DNA from: a bacterium
GTDB taxonomy: Bacteria > Patescibacteriota > Patescibacteriia > UBA1558 > UBA10009
Reading direction: 5' to 3'
DNA length: 64,000 nucleotides
Assembly: GCA_018672055.1 (NCBI GenBank)
Contig: JABHGM010000001.1
Span: 8,884-72,883, forward strand
This document shows positions 11,901 to 34,761 of the stretch, one piece after another (the stretch's first letter is position 1; each line of letters starts with the position of its first letter). A model generated the notes under the pieces. The model did no database searches and was not told the DNA's origin. It saw only the letters and a list, made by a program, of their open reading frames with translations. A program made the translations under genes and the position numbers.

Positions 11901-14284
11901 TCAACATAAATATATATATATTCACCTTTTCTCATACCTAAAACATGATACCATTCCTGACTAGCAATCTCATCTGATGAAACTGCAGTATATGCAGTAG
12001 TACCTGATTCAAAAGCAAAGCCTGGAGTTTTAGAAGTCGATCCACCAGAACCAGTATTTAAACCCCACTCATTAGTCCCTGGAGAAGCACCAGTATTCCA
12101 TTTAGTAATTATTTGATTTTGATAATTAATTGGATCATCACGACGTCTCGCCCAAGCAGAGACAGTAAAATCATTAGAACCGAAATCATAAATATCTAAA
12201 TCTGCTAAATCTATATAACTAGATGTTCCATTAAATTCACTTGAACCCCCAAACTTAGCAGTAGTACTTGCCGTAACAGTAGATGAAGTACCATGGCTAC
12301 CAGCACCACTAGAATCAATAACTTCTGCTGGAGTACCATCCCAGCCAGTACCATCCATTTTCCAATAACCTATTAAACCTTGTGATAAATATTGTTGAGG
12401 TCTTTGACCTATACCTACGCCAACTCCTTCAGTTCCGCTGAAACCTGATGCTCCAGCATTATAGTCTCTTCTTATTTGCGCTGTTGATCTAGCATAATTA
12501 TATATCTTCGGTTCATCTAAAGAACCATCAATCGTAGGATCACTTCCATAACCCATACCTATCCTATCGATTGTTAATGTATTAGATGATGAAAAAGCAC
12601 TGGTAGACCCTTGATATTCTCCATTGATATATGCTCTTATACCTGTTGTTTCAATATTAATAGTAAGATGGTACCAACTATTTAAACTTACAGGCGAACT
12701 TAAACTAATAGATTTACTTACTCCGGTGTCATCTTGTAAATATATTTGTGTACCACTATAACGAAGACTAATTAAATCATCCCAACTTCTACTATTTGGA
12801 CCCTGCATTAATCCTGCTCCGATAGAATTAGGAGAGTAAGTATCCCATTCATTTACTTTAAACCATATAGAAACAGAATGATTTTCAGATAAATCCATAG
12901 CTATAGAACTAAAGCTAACATAATCATTAGATCCATCAAATTTTAAACATTTGCCACTAATACACAGATCTTCACTTTGCCAAATAGCTCCAGAAATAGT
13001 TCCATTACTCTGACTAGAAGAACTATCATAAGCAGTAGAACCATAACCTTCATCAAATGACCAATAACCAATAGGTGCAACATTTACTTGTTCAGTAGAA
13101 TAAGTAACTGTATATGCGCCATATAAACTACCTTTTTCATGCATCTCACTTATACCACCATCTCCAGCAATGGTTGCAAAACGTATTGAACGACTCTCAC
13201 CATCACTGTAAGATTCTGAATAAGAATAATTTGTTTGATAATATGAAGCAACATTACTAGTATGACCATACTTCCAATCAGATCCATTAGGATTAATTAC
13301 AGTTGCCCCGTAGTGCCCTGTAGAAGTCCAATGCTGACCAAACCAATTATCTCCTAGATCAGCTTCATACAATGTACCAGAAATAGCCTCTTGATCAACT
13401 AAATCACCATTAGCATCAACCCAAGCTGCATTTCTAGTACTGCTTGTAAAGCTTAAATAATGATATAAATCCTCGGTAGTACTAGTATTATAATTCATAT
13501 AAATTCTTTCTGAAATATAACCATTGGCAAAACCCATAATGATAGTGCCATATGAACTATAGTTACCATAATCAGTATCTTCATATTTTATTTCAGCAAA
13601 TAATGGACCAGTTGAATTTAAGGCAGTTCTTGTAAGACCTTCAACATTCCACCAATCACTAGGAGGATAGCTATCAGTATGCCTAGAAACACTATTAACA
13701 CCCAAATCAACATTATTATATTTAATATCAGTAAATTGACCATAAGTACCACCATCAGCTGATACTGTATAATCAAAATTATCAGTCATTTCAATCTTAT
13801 TTGCCGTACTAAATACAGCATCAACGTCACTTGTAAAAGAATAAGCAGTAGCAGAAGAATTGCCATAATATATGAAATAAAATTCTGAATTATTTTGAGA
13901 TATACTTGCTTCAAACCAAATACCAGTCTCACTTGTATTCAAAGTACTTTCTTCTACCTGATACTTTTTTATATTACCAAAACTATCAACTACTCTAATA
14001 TCATCAGCATCAGCTTGGAGCTTACCGTCGCTAATTAAAGTAGCTGTATCAATTATTACTCTATATGGCACATCACTTCCGTTAAATGCAGAATCATTAC
14101 TAATCTTTACTCTTTGCCTATAACTCCAAGTTTCATTCCACCAAGCAGCTTCTGTTTCTTCTGGGCTACGTAATAAATAGATAAATGAAGCAACAATAAC
14201 AATACCTATTATTATATAGATAAAATAAAAACGATAATCAATATTTTTTAAATAGTTATATATTTTTTTAAAATAATCTTTCAT
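8939..14284 (-). CDS. Giant surface protein (1781 aa), paralog 2: signal-anchor, DUF2341-like, multi-LamG
   Basis: Conserved N-terminus (YLKNIDYRF..TM..ETEAAWWNETWSYRQ). Collinear with paralog 1, including near-identical inter-domain linkers (RDYNAGASGF.G.EGVGVGIGQRPQQYLSQGL.GYWKMD; MNAGHPAGGSP...GYWKFDEG). C-terminal 'DEVKIFNYALTNLQVKQVYNNGAVNFK'. Confidence 0.85.
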   Translation of the reverse strand: MKDYFKKIYNYLKNIDYRFYFIYIIIGIVIVASFIYLLRSPEETEAAWWNETWSYRQRVKISNDSAFNGSDVPYRVIIDTATLISDGKLQADADDIRVVDSFGNIKKYQVEESTLNTSETGIWFEASISQNNSEFYFIYYGNSSATAYSFTSDVDAVFSTANKIEMTDNFDYTVSADGGTYGQFTDIKYNNVDLGVNSVSRHTDSYPPSDWWNVEGLTRTALNSTGPLFAEIKYEDTDYGNYSSYGTIIMGFANGYISERIYMNYNTSTTEDLYHYLSFTSSTRNAAWVDANGDLVDQEAISGTLYEADLGDNWFGQHWTSTGHYGATVINPNGSDWKYGHTSNVASYYQTNYSYSESYSDGESRSIRFATIAGDGGISEMHEKGSLYGAYTVTYSTEQVNVAPIGYWSFDEGYGSTAYDSSSSQSNGTISGAIWQSEDLCISGKCLKFDGSNDYVSFSSIAMDLSENHSVSIWFKVNEWDTYSPNSIGAGLMQGPNSRSWDDLISLRYSGTQIYLQDDTGVSKSISLSSPVSLNSWYHLTINIETTGIRAYINGEYQGSTSAFSSSNTLTIDRIGMGYGSDPTIDGSLDEPKIYNYARSTAQIRRDYNAGASGFSGTEGVGVGIGQRPQQYLSQGLIGYWKMDGTGWDGTPAEVIDSSGAGSHGTSSTVTASTTAKFGGSSEFNGTSSYIDLADLDIYDFGSNDFTVSAWARRRDDPINYQNQIITKWNTGASPGTNEWGLNTGSGGSTSKTPGFAFESGTTAYTAVSSDEIASQEWYHVLGMRKGEYIYIYVDGEEKASTYIGSIAVNNASGRSLEIGRIAAGYEFDGNIDEVRVYNRSLSSREVRDLYNWAPGPIAHIKMDEGSGSTAYDRSTNQKNVTLYNSPTWTSGKFGQALSFNGTDQYGLISSDDTLFSILPTRKQSFSFWIKADSYATKQVVLSRRNGCNNDAHFNIYAYANDLYFALYSDGDTAYSSHYTSGDVLTNSEWYHVEWVKEWGISGGTKLYLNGSLQSLTLSNEIASGASYSSLPVYVGAQKSGSSCNGPVQDYFNGIIDDVRIYNYARTPKQVIEDMNAGHPAGGSPIASQFGYWKFDEGYGSTAYDYGYGDNDGTITNATSTNNGKFSRGLDFDGDGHVTGSLSGFTSLNRWTASTWFRTSDNQAYIFDTRTSNDDGAVIYSSSATVIHAALVSGSTLYKDYLYTITELDGNWHYIALSRDGDNSLTLYIDGIAQTPSSIDTDVDMTSVSETWTNFTFGNRHSLDAYQLSGTIDEFKLYGSALTEDEILIDYNKGSSLVLGASGQETTGVASSSASVMYCIPGDTATCDPPVAEYKLDERTGSSAYDTSNNNNTGTITNGTWQGASSCIKGSCMLFDGNDEISVSDNAALDLTTTGTVAVWAKIDSYNSGQYPHIVGKGASAGWDTDGYAIWIYSDNYIRGELDDEAETPSNDYVSFGKPSTGEWHYYVMTWDGTTIYAYLDGALSTASPSSDTQRFSVPNTAVDLEIGRRGNYFNGSIDEVRLYDYARTPAQVAYSFNRGASVGYWKFDECSGSTIYDWAPNSNGGYNGNNGSLIIGTGGTNTATGTCATSGAWNDGATGKINASMEFDGTDDYLSMGDKSTHDWGSGDGTVSAWFKTSTAGIQDIVQNGSYSTNAKSYTILLDTNSKFAVSIDDNTTAKAVISDTSGNDGLWHHIVGVRDGNDLRLYIDGIEDANSPTDITGYGDIDISDPLMIGAGTNGTGGSPGNFYTGQIDEVKIFNYALTNLQVKQVYNNGAVNFK

Positions 14285-22248
<7,964 letters not shown>

Positions 22249-22259
<11 letters not shown>

Positions 22260-22833
22260 ATTTTCTTGAACTTACTGTTGTTTGAAAATGTGATGTATGT
22301 AATTTATCATTATCAATTATATTACTCTCTGTTTCTAAAACTATGGTTACTCTGGGTTGTAAATCATAAAAATAACCTGAACCTGCTTGCCAAGCAAAAG
22401 GATCTTTAATTGGTGAGATATAAAAATCTAAACGAGTTACTTTAATATCTGTAGGCGTAATATCTAACCACTCATCTGATACACAATTTACCGAGTTATA
22501 GCAAACCTGAACAGCGTCTCTACCTTCTGACAAAGCTTTTCTAAAAATAACTGGATTATTATTTTCATCAAGTAAAGCAAGCTCGTCTTCAGGTTCTGTT
22601 AAAGAAGTAGGATATGCTGAATAACTATAATCTACAGTACCCATTCTAAATTCACGAGCCATAACTTCTAAAACATACCTAGCATCAGAAATAGAACGTT
22701 GAATATTCGCAGTTCTTTTTTGAACTGTATTAGACTGAGTAAAAATAGATAAAGCATAAGTTGTAGCAATAGCAAAAATACCTAGTACTAAAACCATTTC
22801 CATCATACTAAAACCTTTTTTATTTCCAATCAT
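22249..22833 (-). CDS. Type IV minor pilin (PilW-like), prepilin-type N-terminus
   Basis: N-terminus MIGNKKG|FSMMEMVLVLGIFAIA: Gly cleavage site, Glu at +5, hydrophobic helix. Confidence 0.6.
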
Positions 22834-23419
22834 ACAATTTATCTACAATACTTAAATTATATGGCTTGTCTGCTTCAAACCAAGTTACTTCAGATTCAAG
22901 GTGATAACCTATCCAACTAACACCAACATGGTCACTACACCTATCACCCGGATCTAAAAGCACTTCAGTATCTATGGGATCTTGCCAACATATTTCCTGT
23001 AAAGTAACTAATCTTTTAAATGAGGTAAGGTCTCCTGAATTGTCATGATTAAATACATCTGAAGTATTATCAAAATATACCTGACAACTATCACATAAAC
23101 TTATAACTGAACTAATATCAGAAAATGACCAACTCTTAGTACTAGGATCAAATTCTGTAATTAAGCGATAATTTGTATCAAAATCACTTAAAAAACCCTG
23201 ATACCAATTATTACCAGCTAACCAATTTGAATCACGATGATTCCTTATTACTTCAATAGACTCACGAGCTAGATTAGCAGCTACTAACCTATCTTCAGAA
23301 CTATTTGAAGAAATTAAATTATGGGTAGTTAAAGAAAGTCCAGCAATAACCCCAGTAACAATAACTCCAAGAGCTACTATCATTTCAATAAAACCAAGAC
23401 CTTTTTCATTTTTAAACAT
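22820..23419 (-). CDS. Type IV minor pilin (PilV-like), prepilin-type N-terminus
   Basis: N-terminus MFKNEKG|LGFIEMIVALGVIV with Glu at +5; 'ANLARESIE' PilV-like segment. Confidence 0.6.
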   Translation of the reverse strand: MFKNEKGLGFIEMIVALGVIVTGVIAGLSLTTHNLISSNSSEDRLVAANLARESIEVIRNHRDSNWLAGNNWYQGFLSDFDTNYRLITEFDPSTKSWSFSDISSVISLCDSCQVYFDNTSDVFNHDNSGDLTSFKRLVTLQEICWQDPIDTEVLLDPGDRCSDHVGVSWIGYHLESEVTWFEADKPYNLSIVDKLYDWK

Positions 23420-23423
23420 ATTT

Positions 23424-23960
23424 TTATGGAATAGTTACTAATTCAGAATTAACTCGTCCAGTTACTCTATTTAAATTAATTACTGCTTTTTTACTTGTTA
23501 CACCATCATGCATTAAAGTAATTTCAGCACTTAAAGCAGCCGTAGATCCATTAATGTATATGACTGGTTTAGGTGGTTCAAATATAATATTTAAAGGGAG
23601 AGTATCAGTTGAAACCTCAGAAACAGTTACTCCTTCAGGGAGTATAATACTTCTAATCAACTCCTCAGGAGCATCAAATTCTTTATCGCTATCAGTATCT
23701 TTAAAGATAGCGTATGATCCAAAACCACTTATAAAAAAAAGACCATAATCAATACTTAAATCAGTATCTTCACCAATGCCAGCCAGAGCTTGAGTTTGAG
23801 CCTTACGAATCTCTGTAGCTACTTGATCAGCAACTAAACGTAATTCCTGTGTCCTTTCACCAGCCCTAAAATTAACAACAGTAACTGTAAAAATAATAAC
23901 AAAAATAACTATAACTGTAATTAATTCTATTAAACTGTAACCTTTTTGATTTATCTTCAT
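23424..23960 (-). CDS. Type IV minor pilin (FimT/GspH-like), prepilin-type N-terminus
   Basis: Probable true start at MKINQKG|YSLIELITVIVIFVII (Met7 of the tracked ORF 23424..23978). Class III signal with Glu+5. Overlaps the pilD stop. Confidence 0.6.
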   Translation of the reverse strand: MKINQKGYSLIELITVIVIFVIIFTVTVVNFRAGERTQELRLVADQVATEIRKAQTQALAGIGEDTDLSIDYGLFFISGFGSYAIFKDTDSDKEFDAPEELIRSIILPEGVTVSEVSTDTLPLNIIFEPPKPVIYINGSTAALSAEITLMHDGVTSKKAVINLNRVTGRVNSELVTIP

Positions 23961-24745
23961 AAATATCCTAAATACCAATTTAATATTTGAGTACCATATA
24001 AAAGAGAAATAACAGTAGCTAGAGTTAAGAAAGTACCAAATGGTAATTGGTCACCCCATTTTTTAAATTTAAATACTATTAAAAATATACTAATTACTGA
24101 ACCAACTATATAAGCAAGAAGCAAGGCTACTAAAGAATTAGGCCAACCCAGCATAGTACCCATTAAAAATCCTAAGCGTATATCTCCCCCACCAATCCAT
24201 TTACCTTTGGAGATAATGAACTGGAGCATAAAAAATCCAGATACAATTAAAGCAGCTAATAATAGATTGAAAATATTAAAACCTAAACTTAAATTAAAAA
24301 TTAGGGAGATAAATATAGCTGGAACAACTACTTTATCTAATATCAAATAATGTTTTAAATCATAAACAAATATTACAACTAAAAATGAACAAAATGTAAT
24401 ATATGAAAAGTATACTAATAGAATATTTAAAGGTATTTCAGAACAAATATTTAGTGGGCAGTATGAGCTTAGATAAAGGAAATAACCTAGAACAAATAAA
24501 ATAGCAGTACTTAGTTCTACTAATAAATACTGCCAAGATATTTTAACATTACAATATCTACATTTTCCTTTAAGAAATAAAAAACTAACCACAGGAATCA
24601 AATCCCTAGCTCCAAGCTTGTGATTACACGAAACGCATTTTGACCTACTAGTTATTAAGCTCTCTTTAGTCTTTAATCTATGTATTACAGCATTTAAGAA
24701 ACTACCAATTATTAGGCCAAGAATAAATACAAAAACTGCTATCAT
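23957..24745 (-). CDS. pilD: Prepilin peptidase (A24 family)
   Basis: N-terminal tetra-Cys Zn motif (CVSCNHKL...CRYCNVKI), multi-TM body, and 'GGGDIRLGFLMGTMLGW' catalytic-Asp region. Confidence 0.85.
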   Translation of the reverse strand: MIAVFVFILGLIIGSFLNAVIHRLKTKESLITSRSKCVSCNHKLGARDLIPVVSFLFLKGKCRYCNVKISWQYLLVELSTAILFVLGYFLYLSSYCPLNICSEIPLNILLVYFSYITFCSFLVVIFVYDLKHYLILDKVVVPAIFISLIFNLSLGFNIFNLLLAALIVSGFFMLQFIISKGKWIGGGDIRLGFLMGTMLGWPNSLVALLLAYIVGSVISIFLIVFKFKKWGDQLPFGTFLTLATVISLLYGTQILNWYLGYL

Positions 24746-24791
24746 ATATAGTAAATTTTACCATTTTTATAGCAGTTAAACAATACTAATA

Positions 24792-25331
24792 TTATAGTTT
24801 TCCAAGACATACCGCAGGTCCACCCGTAAGACTTCCGAGGCCAAGAATTATAATTCCACCACCTGTGTCATCATCGCATACTAATATTTGAACTGACTTA
24901 TCATTAGAAGTTACACAATTACTAGATAATGGATTCAAAACTGATATAGCTCCATCAATATCTCCTTGAATAGTTTTTTCTTGTTCTAATAAGGTGCCTG
25001 TTAAATACCTGTTACCATTCCTACAGTAGAAATAAAATCTTGAACTATCGGGATCATGCGGCATAGCTCCGCTAGCTAAATAACCAGTTAATTTATTAAT
25101 TCCAGAACCAACAGCTAAATCATCATAATCATCAGGTATTGCTGGAGGTACTCCATAATTAGCAATATGTATTTCAATAGCCTTATATAATGTACCAATA
25201 TCATTCATTCTATTTCCATCTCTTGCTTTTGCTCTAGTACTATTTAAGGTAATTAAAGAAATAGAAGAAATTAATGCAATAATAGAAATTACAACTAAAA
25301 GTTCAGTTAAAGTAAAGCCTTTTTTATTCAT
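24792..25331 (-). CDS. Type IV pilin (prepilin), paralog 4
   Basis: MNKKG|FTLTELLVVISIIALI class III signal peptide; Cys-containing C-terminal globular domain. Confidence 0.75.
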   Translation of the reverse strand: MNKKGFTLTELLVVISIIALISSISLITLNSTRAKARDGNRMNDIGTLYKAIEIHIANYGVPPAIPDDYDDLAVGSGINKLTGYLASGAMPHDPDSSRFYFYCRNGNRYLTGTLLEQEKTIQGDIDGAISVLNPLSSNCVTSNDKSVQILVCDDDTGGGIIILGLGSLTGGPAVCLGKL

Positions 25332-25390
25332 AAATCTATATATAGTCTAAATAAAAAAAATAATTTATTAAAAGACTAATTCTAAATAAA

Positions 25391-25867
25391 TTAGTTACAG
25401 TCAGTTATAACCCCCTGATTATTAATAGCATGTAAACCAGCACTATATTCGGTAGTTCCGCCCTCTAAATAAAAACACAGTTGATAATCATCAACTGTGG
25501 CTCCAGCAGAACCATCATTTTTACTAATTGAGTAATCACAAACATCAACAGATGTGGAATTACAGGCTCCAACACCAGTAATATCAAAAAATCTACTTAG
25601 ATCATCAGTTACAAAAGCAGGCCCTGTGCAGCTAGTAGTTAAGTCATATGCGCCATCACAACCTACCATAGTAGCGCCAGGTATAGTATTAGCACCTAAC
25701 TCCATAGTTATATACATTTGACTTATATCAGAAACACGTCTTGCATCACGACCTTTCTCACGACTACTAGTAAAAAGAATTGCTGCTGACGACATAAACA
25801 AAGCAATTATAGAAATTACTAATAATAATTCAGTTAAAGTAAAACCTTTTATATTTCTTAAATTCAT
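25391..25867 (-). CDS. Type IV pilin (prepilin), paralog 3
   Basis: ...NIKG|FTLTELLLVISIIAL prepilin signal; 'ARRVSDI' pilin-conserved N-terminal helix; C-terminal Cys pairs. Confidence 0.75.
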   Translation of the reverse strand: MNLRNIKGFTLTELLLVISIIALFMSSAAILFTSSREKGRDARRVSDISQMYITMELGANTIPGATMVGCDGAYDLTTSCTGPAFVTDDLSRFFDITGVGACNSTSVDVCDYSISKNDGSAGATVDDYQLCFYLEGGTTEYSAGLHAINNQGVITDCN

Positions 25868-25878
25868 TTATATTTCAA

Positions 25879-26361
25879 TTAAGGAGTATAAGAACAAGTA
25901 ATTGGCGAACTGGTAATAATACCACCAGGGCCTACATGATTAACTCCTGCAGCAATATTAGCTATACCTTCTTCTAAATAGAAACAGATTTCATAATCTG
26001 CTTCATCACTATCTAAACCTATTGAATAAGCACAGATAGCTTCAGAATTACCATTACAAGCACTAGTACCTGTAGGATCTGTTAAAGTACCCCAATTATA
26101 ACCAGCAAAATCTCCACAATCCGTTGTTAGATCACCTTCACTATTACAACCACCAGGAAAAATATCATAACCACCAGTTGCACTATTTGCAGCTTCCATT
26201 TCAATTAATAAAGAAAGTTGTTTAACATCTGATACACGTTTTGCATCACGAGCTTTTGCTCTAGCACCATTTAGAGACACAACAGCAATTGACGATAATA
26301 AACCAATAATGGCAATAACTACTAAAAGTTCAATTAAAGTAAAACCTTTTTTGTTTTGCAT
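25879..26361 (-). CDS. Type IV pilin (prepilin), paralog 2
   Basis: MQNKKG|FTLIELLVVIAIIGLL. The first ~60 aa are nearly identical to paralog 1 (also at the DNA level) and the C-terminus diverges. 7 Cys. Confidence 0.8.
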   Translation of the reverse strand: MQNKKGFTLIELLVVIAIIGLLSSIAVVSLNGARAKARDAKRVSDVKQLSLLIEMEAANSATGGYDIFPGGCNSEGDLTTDCGDFAGYNWGTLTDPTGTSACNGNSEAICAYSIGLDSDEADYEICFYLEEGIANIAAGVNHVGPGGIITSSPITCSYTP

Positions 26362-26392
26362 AGGATTTTTTAGTTAATATATATATGCATAT

Positions 26393-26401
26393 ATTATAAC
26401 A
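26393..26401 (-). promoter_or_regulatory. Extended -10 element (TGtTATAAT on the minus strand), ~32 nt upstream of the pilin paralog 2 start
   Basis: Plus-strand 'attataaca' is the reverse complement of TGTTATAAT. It lies immediately after the terminator of the upstream pilin gene. Confidence 0.4.
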
Positions 26402-26403
26402 TA

Positions 26404-26434
26404 AAAAGGTCTCGATTACGAGACCTTTTTATAT
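26404..26434 (-). terminator. Rho-independent terminator after pilin paralog 1
   Basis: Hairpin aaaaaggtctcg-atta-cgagacctttttat: 11-bp GC-containing stem, 4-nt loop, U-run on the minus-strand transcript (A-run/T-run on both sides). Confidence 0.75.
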
Positions 26435-26449
26435 CTATACAATCAAATA

Positions 26450-26938
26450 TTATATATCGTAAGTACATTCGGCAGTAATTACACCACCAGGACCAGCACT
26501 ATTAACCCCTTGAGCAACACCACCAATACCTTCTTCTAAGTAAAAACATATTTGATAATCACCTGTAGCTTCACCAACACCCATTGAATAAGCACAAGGT
26601 GCAGCAGTATCTGCCTGACAAGCAGCAGTGCCAGAAGGATCTAAAATAGTATTAAGATCAACCCCACCTAACAAATTAGCAGCAACGCCAGTACATGCGC
26701 TCATTAAATCACCTGCGTCCTCGCATACGGTAGGAAAAACATTATAACCACCAGTAGAACTATTAGCAGCTTCCATTTCTACTAAAGTACTAATTTGTTT
26801 AACATCTGATACACGTTTTGCATCACGAGCTTTTGCTCTAGCACCATTTAGAGATACTACAGCTAAAGTTGATAATAGACCAATAATGGCAATAACCACT
26901 AAAAGTTCTATTAATGTAAAACCTTTTTTGTTTTGCAT
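26450..26938 (-). CDS. Type IV pilin (prepilin), paralog 1; likely major pilin
   Basis: MQNKKG|FTLIELLVVIAIIGLL class III signal; Cys-rich C-terminal domain. First gene after the long intergenic region and followed by a strong terminator, consistent with a highly expressed major subunit. Confidence 0.8.
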   Translation of the reverse strand: MQNKKGFTLIELLVVIAIIGLLSTLAVVSLNGARAKARDAKRVSDVKQISTLVEMEAANSSTGGYNVFPTVCEDAGDLMSACTGVAANLLGGVDLNTILDPSGTAACQADTAAPCAYSMGVGEATGDYQICFYLEEGIGGVAQGVNSAGPGGVITAECTYDI

Positions 26939-27135
26939 AAAATTATAAAGTTATATTTATAAGACTATAATTTAAGTAAATTTAAGTAGATTTTAAATAA
27001 ACATTTCGACCTTTATTTATTTAAAAATAAAGAATTTATAAAGTAGAAGCTTCTTTTACTTCATAAAATGACTTAAATAACTTTTTTTATATTATTAAAG
27101 GCTGTGGATAACAAATCCCCAACCATGCTATATAT

Positions 27136-27164
27136 ATTATAATAGTTTTTAAGACAAAAATCAA
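27136..27164 (-). promoter_or_regulatory. Candidate sigma70-type promoter (TTGATT-17-TATAAT on the minus strand) between pilC and the pilin array
   Basis: Reverse complement of 27136-27164 reads ttgatt-tttgtcttaaaaactat-tataat. It would give a ~190-nt leader to the pilin ATG at 26938. Confidence 0.35.
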
Positions 27165-27182
27165 TACTTATCAACAACTTAT

Positions 27183-28400
27183 CTAAAACTGATTAGCTAG
27201 GTTATACATTGGTAAAATAATAGATGCTACCATACCACCTACTGCTACACCAATTAAAACCATTATAAAAGGTTCAATTAAATGAGTCATATTAGCTACC
27301 ATATTCTCAATTTCTCTTGAATAAAAATCACTCACCTTATTTAATATATTATCTAAACGACCAGTTTTTTCACCAACCGCTAGCATGTTTGAAACAAGTT
27401 TAGGTACAATATCTGAGCGTAAAAATACCACAGCTACGCTATTCCCATCTTCCACCTCTTTAATAGTCTCTTCAATCAATTCCCTATATGCCATATTACC
27501 AACTACCTCAGAAACAATTTCTAAAGCTCTAGCAAGAGGTACCCCGCCTACTACCAAGGTAGATAAAGAACGAGTGAAACGAACTAAATAAATCATTTTA
27601 AATAGATTGCCAAAAATTGGTATTTTTAATTTAAAAGCATCCCATATAGATCTGCCTCTGGTCGTAGAAAGTAACCACTTAGTACCAAATATAATCCCAG
27701 CAATAACAATTATTAAAGCCCACCAATACTGCCTCATAACATGAGAAGAACCAATTAATACTTTAGTTGTAAAAGGTAGTTCAGAACCAGAAGCTGTAAG
27801 CATTGAAGTTAGTTGAGGAATCACAAAAATCATCATAGCGACACCGACAACAACTAAACCTGACATAATGAAAATAGGATAAATCATAGCTCCCTTAATC
27901 TTTGAAGTTAAATCATAATCCTTTTCTTCTTGATCAGCTAAGTACTCTAATACTTCATCTAATTTACCAGATGTTTCTCCTGACTTAATCATAGAAGCAA
28001 AGAACTCAGAAAAAACTTTAGGATATTTAGCAAGTGAGCCAGATAATTTAACACCATTCTCTACTTCGTCTGCTATATCTGATATTATTTCTTTAAAATG
28101 TTCACTTTCTGTTTGTTGAACAATAATTCTTAAAGATTGAACAACAGGTACATTAGCACTAATCATTACAGCTAGTTGACGTGCAAAAATTACAACTTCT
28201 TTTCTTTTAATTTTTCCTTTTAAAAAAGTAAAAGTAAAACCTTTTTCAGAATCATATTCAACCCTAGACACTTCTTCAATAGAAATTATAGCGATTCCTC
28301 TATCAATTAAAATATCGGCTGCTGTATTTTCGTCAGCAGCCTCAACAATACCTTGAAATATTTGTCCTGAAGGCTTCCTAGCCTTGTAATTATATTTCAT
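27183..28400 (-). CDS. pilC: Type IV pilus platform protein PilC (GspF family)
   Basis: 405 aa, two GspF repeats, three TM segments, conserved 'KYPKVFSEFF...IKSGETSG' and 'GEKTGRLD'-type motifs. Confidence 0.85.
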   Translation of the reverse strand: MKYNYKARKPSGQIFQGIVEAADENTAADILIDRGIAIISIEEVSRVEYDSEKGFTFTFLKGKIKRKEVVIFARQLAVMISANVPVVQSLRIIVQQTESEHFKEIISDIADEVENGVKLSGSLAKYPKVFSEFFASMIKSGETSGKLDEVLEYLADQEEKDYDLTSKIKGAMIYPIFIMSGLVVVGVAMMIFVIPQLTSMLTASGSELPFTTKVLIGSSHVMRQYWWALIIVIAGIIFGTKWLLSTTRGRSIWDAFKLKIPIFGNLFKMIYLVRFTRSLSTLVVGGVPLARALEIVSEVVGNMAYRELIEETIKEVEDGNSVAVVFLRSDIVPKLVSNMLAVGEKTGRLDNILNKVSDFYSREIENMVANMTHLIEPFIMVLIGVAVGGMVASIILPMYNLANQF

Positions 28401-28402
28401 AA

Positions 28403-29473
28403 TTATCTAAATAGCTTAGCAATAGTTTTGGGATCAGTAGCATACTTTGCAGCTTCTTGCTGATCAATACGCCCCATTCTAACAAGTTCTGCAAGTGACA
28501 TATCCATACTTATCATACCTTGAGCTCTGGATGTCTGAATTATACTTTCTAAATTTGCAAACCTACCATCTTTAATTAATGACTTACCAGAATCAGAAGA
28601 AGTAAGTATTTCTACAGCTAATGCTTGATCACCTTTAACATCTGGTATTAATTTCTGAGCAATAATACCTACTAAATACTTAGCTAATACATCACGTACC
28701 CATTTTTTCTTAGCTTCAGGGAAATCTGAAACTATTCCTTGAATACAAGAAATAACAGTATCATAATTCATAATAACTAATACTAAACGTCCTGATTCAG
28801 CCATTTCTAAAAGAGCTTCTAATGTTTTTAAATTATCAACTTCAGATAATACAACAACATTTATATCCTGATCACTTATACTTACTAAACCTTCAGTAAA
28901 TGAATTAACATCATTACCTATTTCTCTTTGTTCAATAAAACTCTGATCATTAATAAATAGATGTTCAATAGGTTTTTCTAAAAGCAATATTCTTTCTTTT
29001 CTACTTTTATTTATTTCATCAATAATAGCAGCTAACGTAGTGCTTCTACCCGAATTAAAAGCACCAGTAACAATTATCAAACCGCTGCTAGCTCTAGAAA
29101 AAGAACTAATTACTTTAGGTACACCTAGTTTTTCTAAAGATAATATTTGTCCTGTAATTAATTTTAAAGACACACTATGGCTACCCTTCTGTTTAAAAAT
29201 ATGTACCTTAAAACGAGCTTTATCTTTCCAAGGAAAAACAAATTTAATTTCTTTACGCTTTTTTAATAATTCTAATTGTTCAGCTGGTACAAAATACTTG
29301 ATGAGAGCATCTAAAAATTCTTTATTAACAACAGCAACATCAGGTAGTGACACTAACTTACCATTTACTCTAATAAATGGATTACTACCTATGTCGAAAT
29401 GAATATCTGTTGCTCTCCTCTCGGCTACGCTATTCAATATTTGATTAATAGTTGTTTCTACGGTTGTAGTCAT
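28403..29473 (-). CDS. PilT-like retraction-ATPase homolog with degenerate catalytic motifs (probable pseudo-ATPase)
   Basis: Collinear with PilT across its full length, but every catalytic motif is altered. Walker A GPTGSGKST -> GAFNSGRST. Asp box EDPIE -> EKPIE. Walker B region DPDIILVGEMRD -> DQDINVVVLSEVDN. His box GHLVFGTLHT -> GRLVLVIMNY. Confidence 0.75.
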   Translation of the reverse strand: MTTTVETTINQILNSVAERRATDIHFDIGSNPFIRVNGKLVSLPDVAVVNKEFLDALIKYFVPAEQLELLKKRKEIKFVFPWKDKARFKVHIFKQKGSHSVSLKLITGQILSLEKLGVPKVISSFSRASSGLIIVTGAFNSGRSTTLAAIIDEINKSRKERILLLEKPIEHLFINDQSFIEQREIGNDVNSFTEGLVSISDQDINVVVLSEVDNLKTLEALLEMAESGRLVLVIMNYDTVISCIQGIVSDFPEAKKKWVRDVLAKYLVGIIAQKLIPDVKGDQALAVEILTSSDSGKSLIKDGRFANLESIIQTSRAQGMISMDMSLAELVRMGRIDQQEAAKYATDPKTIAKLFR

Positions 29474-29518
29474 ATTAAATTAATTAAATAATTATATAAT
29501 TGACAAGCATTATATATA

Positions 29519-29893
29519 TTAAAAATTTTCTAAAACTTTTTTTATTTTAATAATTACTTCACTTGGTACAAAATGAGCTTTAATTAAAAAATCTTTAGCT
29601 CCAAGATCTAAACATTTATCTATATCTTCTTTTTGACTTAAATTTGATAATACAATAACTGGTATATTCATATTTTCACTTTTAAGCTTTTCTAAAAATT
29701 CAAAACCATTTAATTTAGGCAGAAGTAGATCAAGTAATATTAAATCTGGTTTTTTCTCTTTTATTATTCTTAATGCCTTTTCTCCATCAGATGCCAAAAT
29801 TACCTTATAACCTTCTATTTCTAGCTTAGAGCTATACATCTGTATTAAAAAGCTATCATCTTCTACAATTAAAATTTTATGATTATTAACCAT
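29519..29893 (-). CDS. Stand-alone response-regulator receiver (CheY/PilH-like)
   Basis: ILIVEDD...PDLILLDLLLP (phospho-acceptor Asp)...LSNLSQ...K; 124 aa with no output domain. Confidence 0.8.
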   Translation of the reverse strand: MVNNHKILIVEDDSFLIQMYSSKLEIEGYKVILASDGEKALRIIKEKKPDLILLDLLLPKLNGFEFLEKLKSENMNIPVIVLSNLSQKEDIDKCLDLGAKDFLIKAHFVPSEVIIKIKKVLENF

Positions 29894-29897
29894 TTAA

Positions 29898-31649
29898 TTA
29901 TTCTTCTTGCTTAGTTACTCTCAAAATTTCTTCAACAGTAGTTAAACCTAAGATTGCCTTCATCCATCCATCTTGAATAATATTAACAAAATTTTGTTTA
30001 ATTAACTCTTCCCTTACTTCTTTACCATTAAAGCCTTGAGCAATGATTTCTCTCATTCTAGTATTAATAATTATCATCTCAGCTATAGCAAGTCTTCCTT
30101 TATAGCCTGTGCCTCCACATTGACTACATCCTTCTCCCTTATGGAATTGAAAGTTACTATTTTCTTTAACTCCTTTATACCAAGCTTTTTCAGGTAATTC
30201 TGCTAAATCCTTTTTAACTTCAACTAAAACTTCTGGTGGAACTTCTTCTTTAACTTTACAATTTTCACAAATACGACGTATTAATCTTTGAGAAATTATT
30301 AAATTAAGAGTAGAAGCAAGTAAAAAAGCTTCTGCACCCATATCAATAAAACGAGGTACAGCACCAACAGCATCATTAGTATGCAAAGTAGTTAAAACAG
30401 AATGACCAGTTAAAGCAGCATGAATTGCTAATCTGGCAGTTTCTTTATCACGAATCTCACCAACCATAATAATATCTGGATCTTGTCTAAGTAGTGCTCT
30501 TAAACCAGCTACAAATGAAAAGCCTAATTCACTTCTTACTTGTGACTGATTAATGCCCTCAATATGATATTCAACAGGATCTTCTAAGGTAGAAATATTT
30601 ACACCATCTTTATTTAATTTAAATAATGCAGAGAATAAGGTAGTAGATTTACCAGAACCAGTAGGACCAGTAACTAAAAACATTCCATTTGGCTTTTTTA
30701 AATTCTTTTCCATCTTTTCAAGAGCATTACCAAAAAAACCTAACTCTTCGAATGTAGGTGCCTTATCTGGTGATTCTAAAACTCTAAGAACTACTTTTTC
30801 TTGAGTAATAAGAGGTATTAAAGAAACACGGAAATCAACATCTTTCTCGCCTACAGTAAGTCTAATACGTCCATCTTGAGGAATACGTGTTTCATCTATT
30901 TTTAAGTTAGAAATAACTTTAATACGAGAAACTAAAGCTGCATGAACATAGATAGGTAAAACAATTGAAGTATGTAAAATACCATCAATCCTGTATCTTA
31001 CTCTACTCTTATCTCCTTGTGGCTCTATATGTATATCTGAAGCACCGCCTTCAATAGCATGACGTAAAATAACGGAAACTATCTTAGAAACAGGAGCACT
31101 TTTAACAACTTGCTCAAGAGGTGTGGCATCACTAATGCTGGTACCAGATTTAGGAGCTAATTTTTCTTCAGCGAAATCTAAAGCTTTACCAACCTGCTCC
31201 TTAATACTTTCATAACCCTTGGCTGCGTTTTGAAAACTATCTGGAGATATGACAAAATATTTTACTTTTAAATTCTTTTTACGAGCCAAAAATTCAATAG
31301 CATCAATAGCTTTAAAATCTGAAGGATCTACTAAACCAACATCTAAATTATTACCTTCTTTATTAAAAACTATTACTTTGTAATTACGTGATAAATCTTG
31401 AGGGATAACTTTAAGAGCTTCTTCTTTAATTTTTTTGCCTTCCAAAAACTCATAAGGCATATTTAAAATCTGACCCTTTATCTTAGCTATAACTTCTGTA
31501 TTAGCAATAGCTGATCCATTTAAAAGTTTACTAAACTTTTCAGGATTAGCTTTTATCATTTTTAAATATTGCTTATACTCTTCAGGACTAATTGAATCTT
31601 GAGTCTTTAAAGCATCTAATAATTGTTTTTGTAATGATTTTTTTAACAT
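29898..31649 (-). CDS. pilB: Type IV pilus assembly ATPase PilB (GspE family)
   Basis: Intact Walker A GPTGSGKSTT, Asp box EDPVEY, Walker B DPDIIMVGEIRD, His box GHSVLTTLHTN, C-terminal tetra-Cys (CENCK...CSQCGGTGYKGR); 583 aa. Confidence 0.9.
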   Translation of the reverse strand: MLKKSLQKQLLDALKTQDSISPEEYKQYLKMIKANPEKFSKLLNGSAIANTEVIAKIKGQILNMPYEFLEGKKIKEEALKVIPQDLSRNYKVIVFNKEGNNLDVGLVDPSDFKAIDAIEFLARKKNLKVKYFVISPDSFQNAAKGYESIKEQVGKALDFAEEKLAPKSGTSISDATPLEQVVKSAPVSKIVSVILRHAIEGGASDIHIEPQGDKSRVRYRIDGILHTSIVLPIYVHAALVSRIKVISNLKIDETRIPQDGRIRLTVGEKDVDFRVSLIPLITQEKVVLRVLESPDKAPTFEELGFFGNALEKMEKNLKKPNGMFLVTGPTGSGKSTTLFSALFKLNKDGVNISTLEDPVEYHIEGINQSQVRSELGFSFVAGLRALLRQDPDIIMVGEIRDKETARLAIHAALTGHSVLTTLHTNDAVGAVPRFIDMGAEAFLLASTLNLIISQRLIRRICENCKVKEEVPPEVLVEVKKDLAELPEKAWYKGVKENSNFQFHKGEGCSQCGGTGYKGRLAIAEMIIINTRMREIIAQGFNGKEVREELIKQNFVNIIQDGWMKAILGLTTVEEILRVTKQEE

Positions 31650-31654
31650 AAAAT

Positions 31655-31987
31655 TTACTGTCTACCTTCTAATAAAAGATCTATAGGTGCAGGCGGAGCT
31701 TCAAACGGATTCTCTTTACCTACCCTACCTAGTTCTAAAGGTAACTTAACAAATGATCTAAGAGATTGATAAACAGAGTTAGAAAAAATATTATTATCAA
31801 ATGAGCTTATTGTATTATTAATCTTTTCAATTGAAACAGCATATTTACTACTCATTAAACCAAAATCTGATCCAAAATCTGAGTTAGATGAATTATTTGA
31901 AAAATAAATTAAAGTATAGCTAATAATACCAAATATAATAATAACTAGTACAATATTTTTTACTTTTGTATTACTTTTTTTAGCCAT
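31655..31987 (-). CDS. Small membrane-anchored protein occupying the pilP position
   Basis: 110 aa with a single N-terminal TM, between the pilO-like gene and pilB. No recognisable domain. Confidence 0.45.
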   Translation of the reverse strand: MAKKSNTKVKNIVLVIIIFGIISYTLIYFSNNSSNSDFGSDFGLMSSKYAVSIEKINNTISSFDNNIFSNSVYQSLRSFVKLPLELGRVGKENPFEAPPAPIDLLLEGRQ

Positions 31988-31988
31988 A

Positions 31989-32642
31989 TTATGGTATGTA
32001 AAAATATGTTCTAAGAGCTAAAGAATATCCAGACATGTCAGTACCTCCTGCAAAACTTAAAGCCATAACATCCATCAAACGTAAATGTCTTTCAATATTA
32101 GCTAATAGTCCTTTTAATTTAAAATAATCCCCTCCTTGTACACTTAAAGTAATGTCCAAATAATGAATACCTGATGCAAATTGATCGTATTCGTCATCTT
32201 TAAAATCAAAATCATCTTCGTCTTCGTCTGCGCTAAGTAAAGACCCTTCAGCAATATCAATAAATGACAAAGAAAAACCACTGGATAAAGTAACTGCTTC
32301 AAGCTGAGCCATTAAATTAGGTACTTCCGCCTCTGATGGCAAAACTTCATTTAACTTATTAATATTACTAAGTTGTTTATCTTTAAATTCTGATACTGTA
32401 GTATCTAAATTTTTTAAATTATTATAGTAAGTTTCTAATTCACGTAATTCTTGTTCTTTTTGTTCTAGTAAACCACCTTTTTTTTGATTTATTGATTCTA
32501 TTTTAGGAATTAATACAATTAGAACCATCATAATGACTACTATAACAAAAGTAATATATTTTGAAATATTAAAATACTTATTTAATAAAAAGTTAATTTT
32601 ATTTATTTTCTTAACTTGTTTTTTTCTATCTTCTAAAGGCAT
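31989..32642 (-). CDS. PilO-like pilus assembly protein
   Basis: N-terminal TM followed by a coiled-coil region (QKKGGLLEQKEQELRELETYYNNLKNL), then a periplasmic-type domain. Gene order is pilM-pilN-pilO. Confidence 0.55.
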   Translation of the reverse strand: MPLEDRKKQVKKINKINFLLNKYFNISKYITFVIVVIMMVLIVLIPKIESINQKKGGLLEQKEQELRELETYYNNLKNLDTTVSEFKDKQLSNINKLNEVLPSEAEVPNLMAQLEAVTLSSGFSLSFIDIAEGSLLSADEDEDDFDFKDDEYDQFASGIHYLDITLSVQGGDYFKLKGLLANIERHLRLMDVMALSFAGGTDMSGYSLALRTYFYIP

Positions 32643-32644
32643 AA

Positions 32645-33565
32645 TTAAAATGAATAAAAAACATCTCCTACTAATTCCAAAGAAATATTAAATGATATTG
32701 TACCCCCTATATTATTACCAGCAGCAGCACTTATTTCTACTAAAGCTATTTCGGGAGAATCTTGGAAAACTTTATACTGTCTAGCAACATTAGTATAACT
32801 ATCAGTATTAGCAGACAAAGCAACTATCCCGTCAGCTGATGCAGAGACATTAGAATAATAGACATCATCAATAGTAATTTTTTCTAAAACTGCAAAAACT
32901 TTAGTCCAATAAATATGAACTTTAAGTAAAGCATCGACTATTTCTAACTTTTTACCTATTATTTCTGCCTCTTGTTTTGTTTCTTCAAATTCAGCTAAAA
33001 CTTTTTCTCCTTCTTCAACATTAGTAATTATTTTATCTCCCTGCTTCTCTATAGCTGTGCCATAGACTGTTAAACCAATATAGAAAATAATAGTTAAAAT
33101 TAAACCAGCTATTGCATATAAACCAAGAGAAATATATATTTTTTTATTTGGTATTAAATATGTGCCTTCAGGAATTAAATTAACATCTAGTTCTTCTAAA
33201 ACTGGTTCTTCATGTAATATACCTTCAGTTACTTTAGGCAAGCTACTTGATATATTATTTTTTATAACATTCTGAGTTGGTTCATCAATTACTTTACGTT
33301 TCTTTTTAAATAATGATTTAAAAAAACTTGGCTTATTACTTACCCTCTTCTGTTTTTTAGTTAACGGTCTTTCTTCAATCTTAAACTCTGGTACCACGAT
33401 ATCTTCAATTGGTTTTGGCTGTGAAGGAGCAGGTGTCTTTACTTCTTGTTTTTCAGGTACATGAAATTCAACAGGAGCTTCTTTTTTAAGAGCTTGTTTA
33501 AATTTCTCTTCATCTTTTCTTAATTCATCAGGTAAAAGATTTATATTGTCTAAATCATCAGCCAT
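32645..33565 (-). CDS. PilN-like pilus assembly protein with a long K/E-rich N-terminal extension
   Basis: TM helix (LGLYAIAGLILTIIFYIGLTVYG) followed by a PilN-type region; sits directly after pilM. Confidence 0.55.
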   Translation of the reverse strand: MADDLDNINLLPDELRKDEEKFKQALKKEAPVEFHVPEKQEVKTPAPSQPKPIEDIVVPEFKIEERPLTKKQKRVSNKPSFFKSLFKKKRKVIDEPTQNVIKNNISSSLPKVTEGILHEEPVLEELDVNLIPEGTYLIPNKKIYISLGLYAIAGLILTIIFYIGLTVYGTAIEKQGDKIITNVEEGEKVLAEFEETKQEAEIIGKKLEIVDALLKVHIYWTKVFAVLEKITIDDVYYSNVSASADGIVALSANTDSYTNVARQYKVFQDSPEIALVEISAAAGNNIGGTISFNISLELVGDVFYSF

Positions 33566-33573
33566 CTTTTTAT

Positions 33574-34761
33574 TTATATATCTCGCATAGCAAGGCCAAT
33601 AGCTACAGCTAAACGAGTGCCTACTTCATCTAAAACTGGTTTTAATTCTTCAGGATAAACTACTCTATCCCAAGGATTACCAATAATAGTTGGTTTATTA
33701 AATATCTCTGTAAAATAATCAGATAGGTTAGGTAAAAAAGCACTACCACCAGATAATACTATTTTCTCAACACTTGAATTTCCTTGATTTTGATATAGGT
33801 CGAAAACATATTTAACTTCATTAACAATTGGACTCAAACTATCAGTTATAACCTTAGGAATACCCTTGCCCTGAACATTAACGCCCATACTTATACCAAT
33901 ATCTCGTTTAAACTGCTCTGCTCTCTCAGGAGTAACATTTAAACTCTTACTTATTGCTTGAGTTATAGTATAGCCACCAACATCAATAGATCTATTTAAA
34001 ATAGGTACGCCTTTTTCAATAATACAAATATCAGTTGTTATAGAACCAACATCTATAATAGTAACAGTGGCTTCATCTACGCCCATTAAAGACCTAGATA
34101 AAGCAAAAGCTTCTGTTTCTAAACTAATTAATCTAAGCCCTGCTTTTTTAAATATATCAATATATCTATTTACTAAATTCTTAGGAGCAGCTGTTACTAA
34201 AATTCTTAATTGTTTTGGAGATTTACCTTTAAAAGTTTCAGGACCATCCTTTTTAATATCTTTCTTATCAACTTCTTTTTCTTTCTCTTTTTCATCACTT
34301 TTAGTCTCTTTCTTTTTAAAGAAAGAAAAACCTTTTTTAGAATCATCTTTTTTAGTATCTTTATCAGAAGCCTCGCCAGTAATGATTTTCCAATCCAAAA
34401 TCATTTCATCCATAGGTAATGGTACATATTTTTTAGCTTCCCATTTAACAGCTGAAGCTAAATCCTTAGTAGGCATTTTAGGCAAGGTAATAATTGAATT
34501 AAAAACAGAAAATGTAGGTAAAGCAGCTATAGCATTAGTAGAAGTAGCACCTGATGATTCAACTAATTTTTTTAAAGACTGAATTATCTTTTGCTGAGCT
34601 TGAGGTGTAGTAGAACGTATAATATCAGTAGCAATATCAATATAGCCATAGGTAACAAGCCTAGGTTTTCCACCTTCATTTTTAAGTTCAACTAGTTTTA
34701 TACTAGCTGTACCCACATCTATACCTAGATATCCAGTTTTTGAACCACCAAAAATAGCCAT
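33574..34761 (-). CDS. pilM: Type IV pilus assembly protein PilM (actin-like ATPase fold)
   Basis: N-terminal 'YLGIDVGTASIKLVELK' and C-terminal 'IVLSGGSAFLPNLSDYF' actin-fold motifs. Contains a K/D/E-rich low-complexity insertion. Confidence 0.85.
   Translation of the reverse strand: MAIFGGSKTGYLGIDVGTASIKLVELKNEGGKPRLVTYGYIDIATDIIRSTTPQAQQKIIQSLKKLVESSGATSTNAIAALPTFSVFNSIITLPKMPTKDLASAVKWEAKKYVPLPMDEMILDWKIITGEASDKDTKKDDSKKGFSFFKKKETKSDEKEKEKEVDKKDIKKDGPETFKGKSPKQLRILVTAAPKNLVNRYIDIFKKAGLRLISLETEAFALSRSLMGVDEATVTIIDVGSITTDICIIEKGVPILNRSIDVGGYTITQAISKSLNVTPERAEQFKRDIGISMGVNVQGKGIPKVITDSLSPIVNEVKYVFDLYQNQGNSSVEKIVLSGGSAFLPNLSDYFTEIFNKPTIIGNPWDRVVYPEELKPVLDEVGTRLAVAIGLAMRDI

Follow-up and report, generated by a model that had tools for sequence, protein, structure and literature searches.

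The pilE/pilS system of Neisseria transfers the variable pilin head from silent, 5'-truncated donor cassettes and depends on a G-quadruplex (G4) element located 5' of pilE. It is a general phenomenon that tandem duplicates evolve in concert through gene conversion of short tracts. Here we analyze an array of four tandem pilin genes, P1 to P4, located at positions 24792-26938 (minus strand) of a 64-kb stretch of contig JABHGM010000001.1 from an uncultivated, ultra-small, Falkowbacteria-like Patescibacterium; the whole stretch is referred to as the window, and its positions are used throughout. Type IV pili are thought to be central to the ability of Patescibacteria to find and hold their hosts. 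Locus one of Nanosynbacter lyticus TM7x comprises PilC1, PilB1, PilT, PilMNO, PilD, and five pilins (PMC11623550), and a pilin family enriched in the candidate phyla radiation (CPR) has been described along with MdbA-like thiol-disulfide oxidoreductases (PMC6744442). In Streptococcus sanguinis, two major pilins with an identical alpha1 helix, PilE1 and PilE2, mix stochastically in one heteropolymeric pilus (PMC10628169, PMC6497953). A preprint on the Pam pilus was discarded as a comparison because that pilus is unrelated and not of type IV.

The four complete open reading frames (ORFs) of the array are type IV pilin genes, and the gene block is the pilin part of a canonical type IVa-like pilus locus of Patescibacteria, ordinary for this group. 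Under the best explanation, which we consider likely although well short of certain, P1 encodes the major pilin and forms a transcription unit of its own, P2-P4 encode accessory pilins co-transcribed with pilD, and the present sequences include the trace of one P1-to-P2 gene conversion. The array is not a new pilin-variation system and shows no cassette-type variation.

The four pilins

P1 (26450..26938, minus strand; 162 amino acids, six Cys; Pfam N_methyl E = 2.5e-9) is the putative principal major-type pilin. P2 (25879..26361, minus strand; 160 amino acids, six Cys) and P3 (25391..25867, minus strand; 158 amino acids, six Cys), the latter with a divergent alpha1 helix, are the second and third members of the P1 head family. 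P4 (24792..25331, minus strand; 179 amino acids, four Cys), which also matches Pfam N_methyl, has an unrelated head with a GspG-like 'MPxDP...YxY' stretch. The class III signal peptides initially proposed for all four proteins are borne out: each has a short basic leader that ends in Gly and is followed by F+1 and E+5 (MQNKKG/FTLIELL in P1 and P2, MNLRNIKG/FTLTELL in P3, and MNKKG/FTLTELL in P4), and the N_methyl scores of 26.6-38.4 bits are above the curated cut-off of 21.2. The description of the array as four tandem paralogs is accurate for the N-terminal ~55 residues of all four proteins and for the heads of P1-P3, those of P1 and P3 being homologous (head BLASTP E = 4e-14), but not for the head of P4, for which comparison with the P1 head detected no homology (BLASTP E = 16); P4 is, therefore, a paralog only over the N-terminal ~55 residues.

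Structure prediction covered P1, for which an AlphaFold2 model was built from 84 homologues. The model (predicted local distance difference test score 91.2) is a lollipop, with a helix spanning residues 9-59 (51 residues) and four strands at 118-156, that is, an alpha1 helix with a beta-sheet head. In a Foldseek search of the model against PDB, the sole convincing match was the full-length PAK pilin 1OQW (probability 0.99, template modeling score 0.46-0.51), and no head-specific function could be read from the matches. In a sequence profile search against PDB, solved pilins matched the N-terminal ~60 residues only, and the head had no sequence relative of solved structure.

The combined Gly, Ala, Ser, and Thr content (GAST), a heuristic taken from work on Saccharibacteria pilins (PMC11623550), is 39.5% in P1, 38.1% in P2, and 37.3% in P3, compared to 26-28% in the minor pilins and 22-26% in the cytoplasmic proteins of the locus. 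By this heuristic, the composition of P1-P3 fits abundant, shed subunits. The GAST of P1, together with the separate promoter-terminator unit described below, hints that P1 is the most abundant subunit of the filament.

The proposed P1 transcription unit and its boundary with P2

Transcription of P1 would start from a sigma-70-like promoter (27136..27164, minus strand; TTGATT-17-TATAAT) with 10 of 12 matches in a consensus scan; TATAAT occupies the equivalent relative place in L014, L015, L024, L030, and L034 (here and below, L numbers denote sequence records of relatives and public contigs). Downstream, within the promoter/leader region, lies an operator-like element, TGGGGATTTG-TTATCCACA (27103..27121, minus strand), the right arm of which is an exact DnaA-box consensus 9-mer; this is the sole exact copy of TTATCCACA in the window. 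The same 9-mer, as TTATCCACA or TGTGGATAA, is present within 250 nucleotides (nt) 5' of the orthologous six-Cys major-type pilin in at least 10 distinct Patescibacteria relatives (L014 at 2383, L015 at 3757, L017 at 3754, L018 at 3745, L021 at 3746, L024 at 3626, L025 at 3245, L030 at 2740, L034 at 3154 and 3800, and L036 at 3787), in L034 before both the first and the second pilin. It comes in two forms, either as a palindrome 12-16 nt past the -10 element or fused to an extended -10 element (TGnTATAATGTGGATAAG). Among the 15 boxes found in 221 kb of non-redundant sequence, 11 fall within the 3% of it that lies 5' of these pilins (binomial 2e-14), and a twelfth precedes a pilin that the search pattern had missed. 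One arm of the element is invariant, and the other one varies without compensation, which argues for a protein-binding site as opposed to an RNA hairpin. Thus, the 9-mer at the pilin promoter looks like a conserved operator that might be bound by DnaA or by another factor. In the available literature, no paper was found that links pilins or Patescibacteria to the term 'DnaA box'.

The long, A+T-rich leader of P1 contains a second conserved element, AAAGGTCGAAA (27004..27014, minus strand), which is found also in the leaders of L014, L015, L023, L024, L025, L030, and L034. In its general form, AAAGGTCGA(AA), this motif is located 30-110 nt past the box, with about 60-80 nt separating it from the start codon. 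No Rfam family matches it, and no conserved upstream ORF goes with it; a candidate upstream ORF at AAGGTCGAAATG was rejected, having been found in the window only and not in the relatives. An Rfam search of positions 24000-27400 at a permissive threshold yielded chance-level matches only (E 0.3-0.8), with no known RNA family found in the leader or in the spacers. As a separate observation, no Shine-Dalgarno sequence is recognizable before any of P1-P4 (window positions 24746-26960); the first pilin gene of Falkowbacteria-type relatives (compare L017, L018, and L021) has AAGGAGG.

The P1 gene is followed by an intrinsic terminator, TAAAAAGGTCTCG-TAAT-CGAGACCTTTTTA (26402..26431, minus strand). 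It consists of a 7-bp G+C-rich stem (GGTCTCG-TAAT-CGAGACC) that extends into an A/T tract and is directly followed by TTTTTA, and is located 19 nt past the TAA stop codon, the arrangement expected of an intrinsic terminator. The P1-P2 spacer folds at -31.6 kcal/mol, compared to -12.5 +/- 2.9 kcal/mol for shuffled sequences (z = -6.6). The promoter/terminator scanner missed this site, apparently because the stem extends through the A/T tract, so that the T tail was lost; the scanner was accordingly replaced by folding and our own hairpin survey. Abutting the T-tract is an extended -10 element, TGTTATAAT (26393..26401, minus strand), a candidate promoter for P2-P4 and pilD. Four of the eight sites with the corresponding pattern, TGNTATAAT, in the window are in intergenic spacers, in the right orientation 5' of genes (26393, before P2; 34832, before pilM; 49227, before the ORF at 49261; and 61867, before the ORF at 61849), which suggests that extended -10 promoters are the working promoter type in this organism.

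The case for this terminator-promoter pair comes primarily from conservation. A hairpin with a T-run, its stem sequence unrelated from case to case, is present 20-35 nt past the stop codon of the P1-type pilin in at least 13 relatives (L014, L015, L034, L036, L016, L017, L018, L021, L020, L023, L030, L028, and L004), and a compensatory change from T-A to C-G in a stem pair distinguishes the window from L014. An element resembling TGnTATAAT stands behind the terminator in at least eight relatives (L014, L015, L016, L017, L018, L021, L023, and L034). Position and structure are kept but the sequence is not, as expected of a functional terminator-promoter pair. The strong terminator after P1 and the extended -10 element directly behind it, both noted in the original prediction, are thereby upheld, and the differential expression proposed there is plausible, given that P1 is set apart from P2-P4 by the terminator and the promoter-like element in a layout that is conserved in relatives. 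Downstream, the scanner found no terminator-like site in the spacers from P2 to pilD (11, 59, and 46 nt).

Two further hairpins were seen in this region. A perfect 10-bp hairpin followed by TTTTTATTTA lies inside the P3 coding sequence (25466-25499, minus strand), at the DDYQLCFYLE motif; it is the sole terminator-like site reported by the scanner, and the count is at chance level (1 found, 1.2 expected). Just past the P2 extended -10 element, a perfect A+T-rich palindrome, ATATATGCATATAT (26371-26392, minus strand), folds as a second small hairpin in the spacer, and the same position in L014 holds an A+T palindrome of another sequence, TATATTAATATA. This palindrome may be a chance occurrence in A+T-rich DNA or an operator.

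Orthology of the array and gene conversion between P1 and P2

The exact four proteins are each present on about 80 public contigs (79 for P1), the longest one being 963 kb, and are annotated there only as prepilin-type or type II secretion proteins of 'bacterium'. The nearest homologues come from Patescibacteria, several being labeled Candidatus Falkowbacteria, and the pilin family is widespread in this group. A GTDB scan with one genome per species recovered the head family in 19 loci, in arrays of one to four pilins. A close relative, GCA_964606355.1 (L001/L002), shares all four pilins, in identical order and likewise flanked by pilC and pilD, each with the highest identity to its positional counterpart, and a more distant relative (L006/L015) has two pilins. 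Several of the metagenome-assembled genome records that carry a Patescibacteria-type pilus locus (L014, L015, L017, L020, L022, L028, and L021) bear the title 'uncultured Gammaproteobacteria bacterium' or 'Methanoregula sp.', probably through mislabeling or mis-binning of the contigs.

Comparison with the sister genome, represented by L014, was the most informative for the history of the array. Each window pilin is closest to its positional counterpart in L014, with head amino acid identities of 64% (P1), 57% (P2; its ortholog is denoted B_P2), 58% (P3), and 60% (P4; the P4 orthologs are 86% / 60% identical at the amino acid level), and the P1 head is more similar to its ortholog than to the head of the window's own P2 (64% vs 49%). 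The neighbor-joining tree of the heads, in which W marks the pilins of the window, B those of L014, and C those of a further relative, contains the groups (W_P1,B_P1,C_P1), (W_P2,B_P2) with bootstrap support of 88, and (W_P3,B_P3) with support of 100. In the 3' part of the genes, 24 four-taxon informative sites support orthology, 6 support within-genome (concerted) grouping, and 8 show the cross pattern. Because both the tree and the site patterns group orthologs, the duplications are older than the divergence of these genomes, and the heads have stayed distinct ever since. With all four genes one-to-one orthologous in the sister genome, the array is old and stable. A recent duplication with fast head divergence is ruled out by the orthology with L014.

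Superimposed on this history is an uneven similarity between P1 and P2. A repeat search independently returned a direct repeat of 222 nt with 87% identity and a spacing of 577 nt. Over codons 1-65, the two genes share 89% identity, with 22 differences in 195 nt and a perfect run of 60 nt (gene nt 85-144), and in the mature proteins residues 1-23 are identical and 54 of the first 60 match. Beyond the first 195 nt, the identity drops to 63% at the nucleotide level and 49% at the amino acid level, but the heads are still related, with all six Cys aligned along with the motifs DP(S/T)GT.AC, CAYS.G, and DY.ICFYLEEG. Pairwise nucleotide alignment, the check suggested initially, thus confirms that divergence along the genes is uneven, with a conserved 5' block; the impression that P1 and P2 are almost identical over the first ~170 nt was overstated, and the notion that the heads diverge completely was mistaken. 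Outside the 60-nt run, the 5' identity of P1 and P2 is ~84%, close to the 83% in the sister-genome pair; hence, most of the 5' similarity reflects ordinary constraint on the alpha1 helix at very low G+C content of third codon positions (GC3; 0.09-0.19 in the genome of the pilin locus).

The 60-nt run itself differs from this background. With 22 differences in the first 195 nt, permutation gives p = 0.004 for an identical run of at least 60 nt. Within the run, W_P1 and W_P2 show no differences, B_P1 and B_P2 differ at 7 nt, and the orthologs W_P2 and B_P2 are distinguished by 13 nt differences. Wherever P1 and P2 of the sister genome differ, W_P2 is P1-like; in particular, it encodes A37, V45, and S46 with the exact codons of P1, where B_P2 and C_P2 have G, I, and N. 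Across gene nt 88-132, six consecutive informative sites support the (W_P1,W_P2 / B_P1,B_P2) grouping and are flanked on both sides by sites that support orthology. In the other relatives examined, long identical runs of the P1/P2 type are absent (25 nt in L014, at most 23 nt elsewhere). Taken together, these patterns indicate, with good support, one short (about 60-70 nt) gene conversion in the lineage of the window, the donor being the P1 copy of the tract (26795..26854, minus strand) and the recipient the P2 copy (26218..26277, minus strand). Recombination between P1 and P2, as initially surmised, has thus occurred, given that W_P2 has P1 states throughout the 60-nt tract; the anticipated exchange of head domains as a mechanism of variation is, however, not supported, because the tract lies within the conserved helix-coding part, which it homogenizes, whereas the heads are one-to-one orthologous.

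Proposed organization of the array and alternative readings

In the organization that we favor, P1 is the principal major pilin and would be translated from its own short, probably abundant monocistronic mRNA, transcribed from the sigma-70-type promoter with its conserved operator-like box, starting with a leader of about 190 nt and terminated by the intrinsic terminator past its stop codon. The extended -10 promoter, along with read-through of this terminator, would drive expression of P2, P3, P4, pilD, and the four minor-pilin genes, such that P2-P4 would be made at a level different from that of P1, probably lower or separately controlled. P1-P3 would be old, functionally separate paralogs that share one disulfide-rich head fold, and P4 would contribute a different head. 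All four would be processed by PilD and enter filaments via the conserved alpha1 helix. Two causes would account for the resemblance of P1 and P2 at the 5' end, namely, purifying selection on alpha1 at low GC3 and the single short conversion in this lineage. The sequence comparisons demonstrate the identity of the genes, the structure of the terminator and its conservation, the orthology, and the conversion tract; we infer promoter activity, relative expression, and the access of the individual pilins to the filament from sequence features.

Several observations weigh against this organization. The TGNTATAAT pattern is not over-represented in the window (8 found vs 10.4 expected). The GAST values of P2 and P3 are about as high as that of P1, so that P2 and P3 may be abundant, too. 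The counterpart of P1 occupies the second place of the array rather than the first in L016-L021, the relatives of Falkowbacteria type, so that 'first after pilC' is no fixed rule. When tested codon by codon, synonymous divergence was not significantly lower in the 5' part (9/57 vs 13/44, p = 0.14), probably because GC3 of ~0.1-0.2 leaves little signal; for the conversion, we relied on the four-taxon site patterns in place of this test. Finally, the strength of the promoters, the efficiency of the terminator, and the identity of the most abundant pilin are all deduced from the DNA.

The strongest of the alternatives concerns the purpose of P2 and is otherwise compatible with the proposed transcription units. 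P1 and P2, and perhaps P3, might co-polymerize stochastically, as PilE1 and PilE2 do in S. sanguinis, with conversion keeping the helix compatible and the heads giving a mosaic surface. The near-identity of the P1 and P2 alpha1 helices makes such co-assembly, also raised in the original prediction, structurally plausible, and the two proteins are also alike in head fold, Cys pattern, and the major-pilin-like GAST. The terminator between the genes, however, predicts unequal amounts of the two proteins, unlike the 'comparable amounts' of PilE1 and PilE2, and the alpha1 helices of P3 and P4 are clearly different. On balance, we regard a heteropolymeric filament as a serious possibility, although one that is somewhat more likely to be wrong than right.

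It is less likely still, although not implausible, that P2-P4 are major pilins for other conditions that form distinct pili using the same machinery. The P2 promoter-like element lacks the 9-mer box of P1, so that regulation probably differs, and the heads have been kept as separate orthologous lineages; furthermore, TM7x makes two distinct type IV pili from different major pilins (PMC11623550). TM7x, however, possesses two machinery sets compared to the single one in the window, and P2-P4 would be co-transcribed with pilD and the minor pilins, which should be needed for any pilus.

A different possibility is that the 60-nt tract serves for head switching. As a RecA substrate, it would allow deletion of the P1 head, placing the P2 head behind the strong P1 promoter, and a reciprocal duplication would produce a P2::P1 hybrid, yielding a simple pilin switch at the level of the population. 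The public clusters of P1 and P2 at 90% identity do include hybrids. Four independent contigs, L010 (Logan), L011 and L012 (ENA), and L033 (JGI), carry a P1::P2 junction: the sequence 5' of P1 and the first 84 nt of P1 continue, across the identical run, into P2 from nt 145 to its end, and P3 and P4 follow, the P1 head being missing. L008 is a 718-nt loop contig that consists of the 577-nt P1-P2 period plus 141 nt and contains the reciprocal junction, and L009 and L013 have P2 genes with a slightly longer P1-type patch. A scan of JGI metagenomes with a degenerate 105-nt pattern, intended as a census of P1, P2, and hybrid forms, returned a single contig, which is too little for that purpose. 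These forms are the expected products of unequal exchange or conversion, but they are also what assemblers make of a 60-nt repeat at low coverage. All the hybrid or mosaic contigs are at most 2.2 kb long, with a depth of about 2.4x in the two for which it is stated; the junction always falls within the 60-nt repeat, which de Bruijn assemblers collapse or turn into a loop; and odd internal deletions, of 163 nt of P3 in L013 and 141 nt of pilC in L033, suggest assembly trouble. The junction aside, the hybrids match the window strain over the compared stretches. Hence, these contigs may be assembly artefacts. Considering also that the canonical proteins are found on the many contigs mentioned above, the 963-kb one among them, and that an irreversible deletion makes a poor switch, we consider head switching improbable. 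The narrower proposition that the tract is a maintained recombination substrate, at which RecA-mediated unequal exchange deletes or duplicates the 577-nt P1-P2 unit in some cells, appears to us slightly more doubtful yet. If true, the P2 head would come under the strong box-controlled P1 promoter, L008, L010-L012, and L033 would be the footprints of this process, and host-dependent ultra-small bacteria would possess a minimal, cassette-free way of changing the pilus surface.

At the opposite extreme, the 5' similarity, including the 60-nt run, could be explained with no recombination at all, by purifying selection on alpha1 combined with extreme codon bias. This reading draws on the GC3 values, the identity outside the run that equals that in the sister-genome pair, and the non-significant synonymous-codon test, but it would require that all 13 nt differences of the P2 tract from its ortholog, three of them amino acid-changing, arose matching P1 exactly, whereas the sister and outgroup pairs differ at 7 nt or more in the tract; we therefore consider it very unlikely.

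Cassette variation of the Neisseria pilE/pilS type, with downstream paralogs donating heads to an expressed P1, is scarcely credible despite the tandem pilins with conserved 5' and variable 3' parts and the evidence of P1/P2 recombination: all four locus pilin ORFs are complete, with ATG, signal peptide, and no frame defects, and none is a silent or truncated cassette; the sole detected transfer is from P1 to P2, in the conserved part; orthology of the heads is stable from genome to genome; the only G or C run in the 244 nt 5' of P1 is one GGGG, so that no G4-forming sequence is present; and head mosaics are absent from the protein variants in public clusters. An inversion system of the Moraxella Piv type or a shufflon-like one was considered and rejected, all pilin genes being in one orientation and the sole inverted matches being weak and A+T-rich (71-89% over 18-35 nt). 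The locus ORFs scanned, three of which had no Pfam match, gave no hit to a recombinase family.

Locus context and neighboring genes

All the other components of a type IV pilus locus that are expected next to the pilins belong to the same gene string. On the minus strand, the order is PilM, a 306-amino-acid ORF, PilO-like, PilB, a response regulator, PilT, PilC, P1-P4, PilD, minor-pilin-like genes, and LigA. The assembly machinery 5' of the pilins (27183..34761, minus strand), identified by Pfam matches, comprises PilC, PilT, the receiver-only response regulator, PilB, the PilO-like protein, the 306-amino-acid ORF, and PilM. The prepilin peptidase PilD (23957..24745, minus strand; Pfam A24_N_bact E = 4.6e-33, Peptidase_A24 E = 3.4e-14) is encoded 46 nt 3' of P4, and is followed by four minor-pilin-like genes (21471..23978, minus strand), including a FimT/GspH-like one, two more pilins, and a PilX_N-like one, with synteny in L001/L002 and L006.

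Three tandem giant paralogs (1786, 1781, and 1733 amino acids; 3601-19486, minus strand) are located between ligA and the gatA amidase gene. Each of these proteins has an N-terminal membrane helix, a conserved DUF2341 start, 'EAAWWN(D/E)(S/T)W.YRQ', and 5-6 Laminin_G_3 (concanavalin-like lectin) domains. In the sister genome L002, gatC directly follows ligA, without giant paralogs there, and a Laminin_G_3 giant adjoins the pilus locus also in L004. The giant paralogs are likely to be surface adhesins acquired beside the pilus locus. On the 3' side of gatA, there are two DsbA/thioredoxin-like genes (380-1769, minus strand), and the pilus neighborhoods of L001, L002, and L006 hold two or three syntenic genes of this kind. 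Plausibly, the two DsbA-like proteins make the pilin disulfides, and the gene pair fits the proposal that the thiol-disulfide oxidoreductases enriched in the CPR fold pilins (PMC6744442).

Significance and comparison with known systems

Outside Saccharibacteria, almost nothing is known about the pili of Patescibacteria, and the locus described here offers a template, clean and conserved, for a large clade of environmental bacteria: one six-Cys head family in up to three copies, what appears to be a monocistronic major-pilin unit, and a putative separate downstream operon. This template can guide experimenters, in that P1 would be expected in filaments and the signals described above could be sought in metatranscriptomes. 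The DnaA-box 9-mer is perhaps the more useful lead, pointing to a possible conserved regulator of pilus expression in organisms with very few transcription factors. The array also shows that the helices of paralogs can stay identical through conversion. Current views are not overturned by any of these findings.

With Neisseria pilE/pilS, the array shares the non-reciprocal transfer between pilin copies in one genome, but the copies in the window are all complete, the tract is in the conserved helix region, and the G4 motif is missing. Concerted evolution of tandem duplicates is a parallel as regards the tract: it is identical, its flanks are diverged, and within-genome paralogs are closer to each other than orthologs in the tract only. 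The pattern is not unusual; the tract is short and has so far been seen in one lineage. The PilA protein of Pseudomonas aeruginosa PAK (1OQW), a classical type IVa major pilin, resembles P1 in the lollipop architecture, the leader type, and the length class, but the sequence identity is 22%, and P1 has three predicted disulfides compared to one in PilA. Similarly to PilE1 and PilE2 of S. sanguinis, P1 and P2 are encoded by two complete paralogous genes with a (near-)identical alpha1 and different heads; the S. sanguinis pilins, however, are extensively identical along their whole length and are produced in comparable amounts, whereas the heads in the window are 49% identical and a terminator separates the genes. 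The window belongs to a Falkowbacteria-like class, as opposed to Saccharibacteria, and differs from TM7x also in having one machinery set and three pilins of a single six-Cys head family, known here from sequence alone. With the type IV pilus loci of Patescibacteria and other CPR bacteria in general, it shares the same machinery set without the PilQ secretin, several pilins beside pilD with conserved N-termini and diverged heads, and disulfide oxidoreductase genes nearby.

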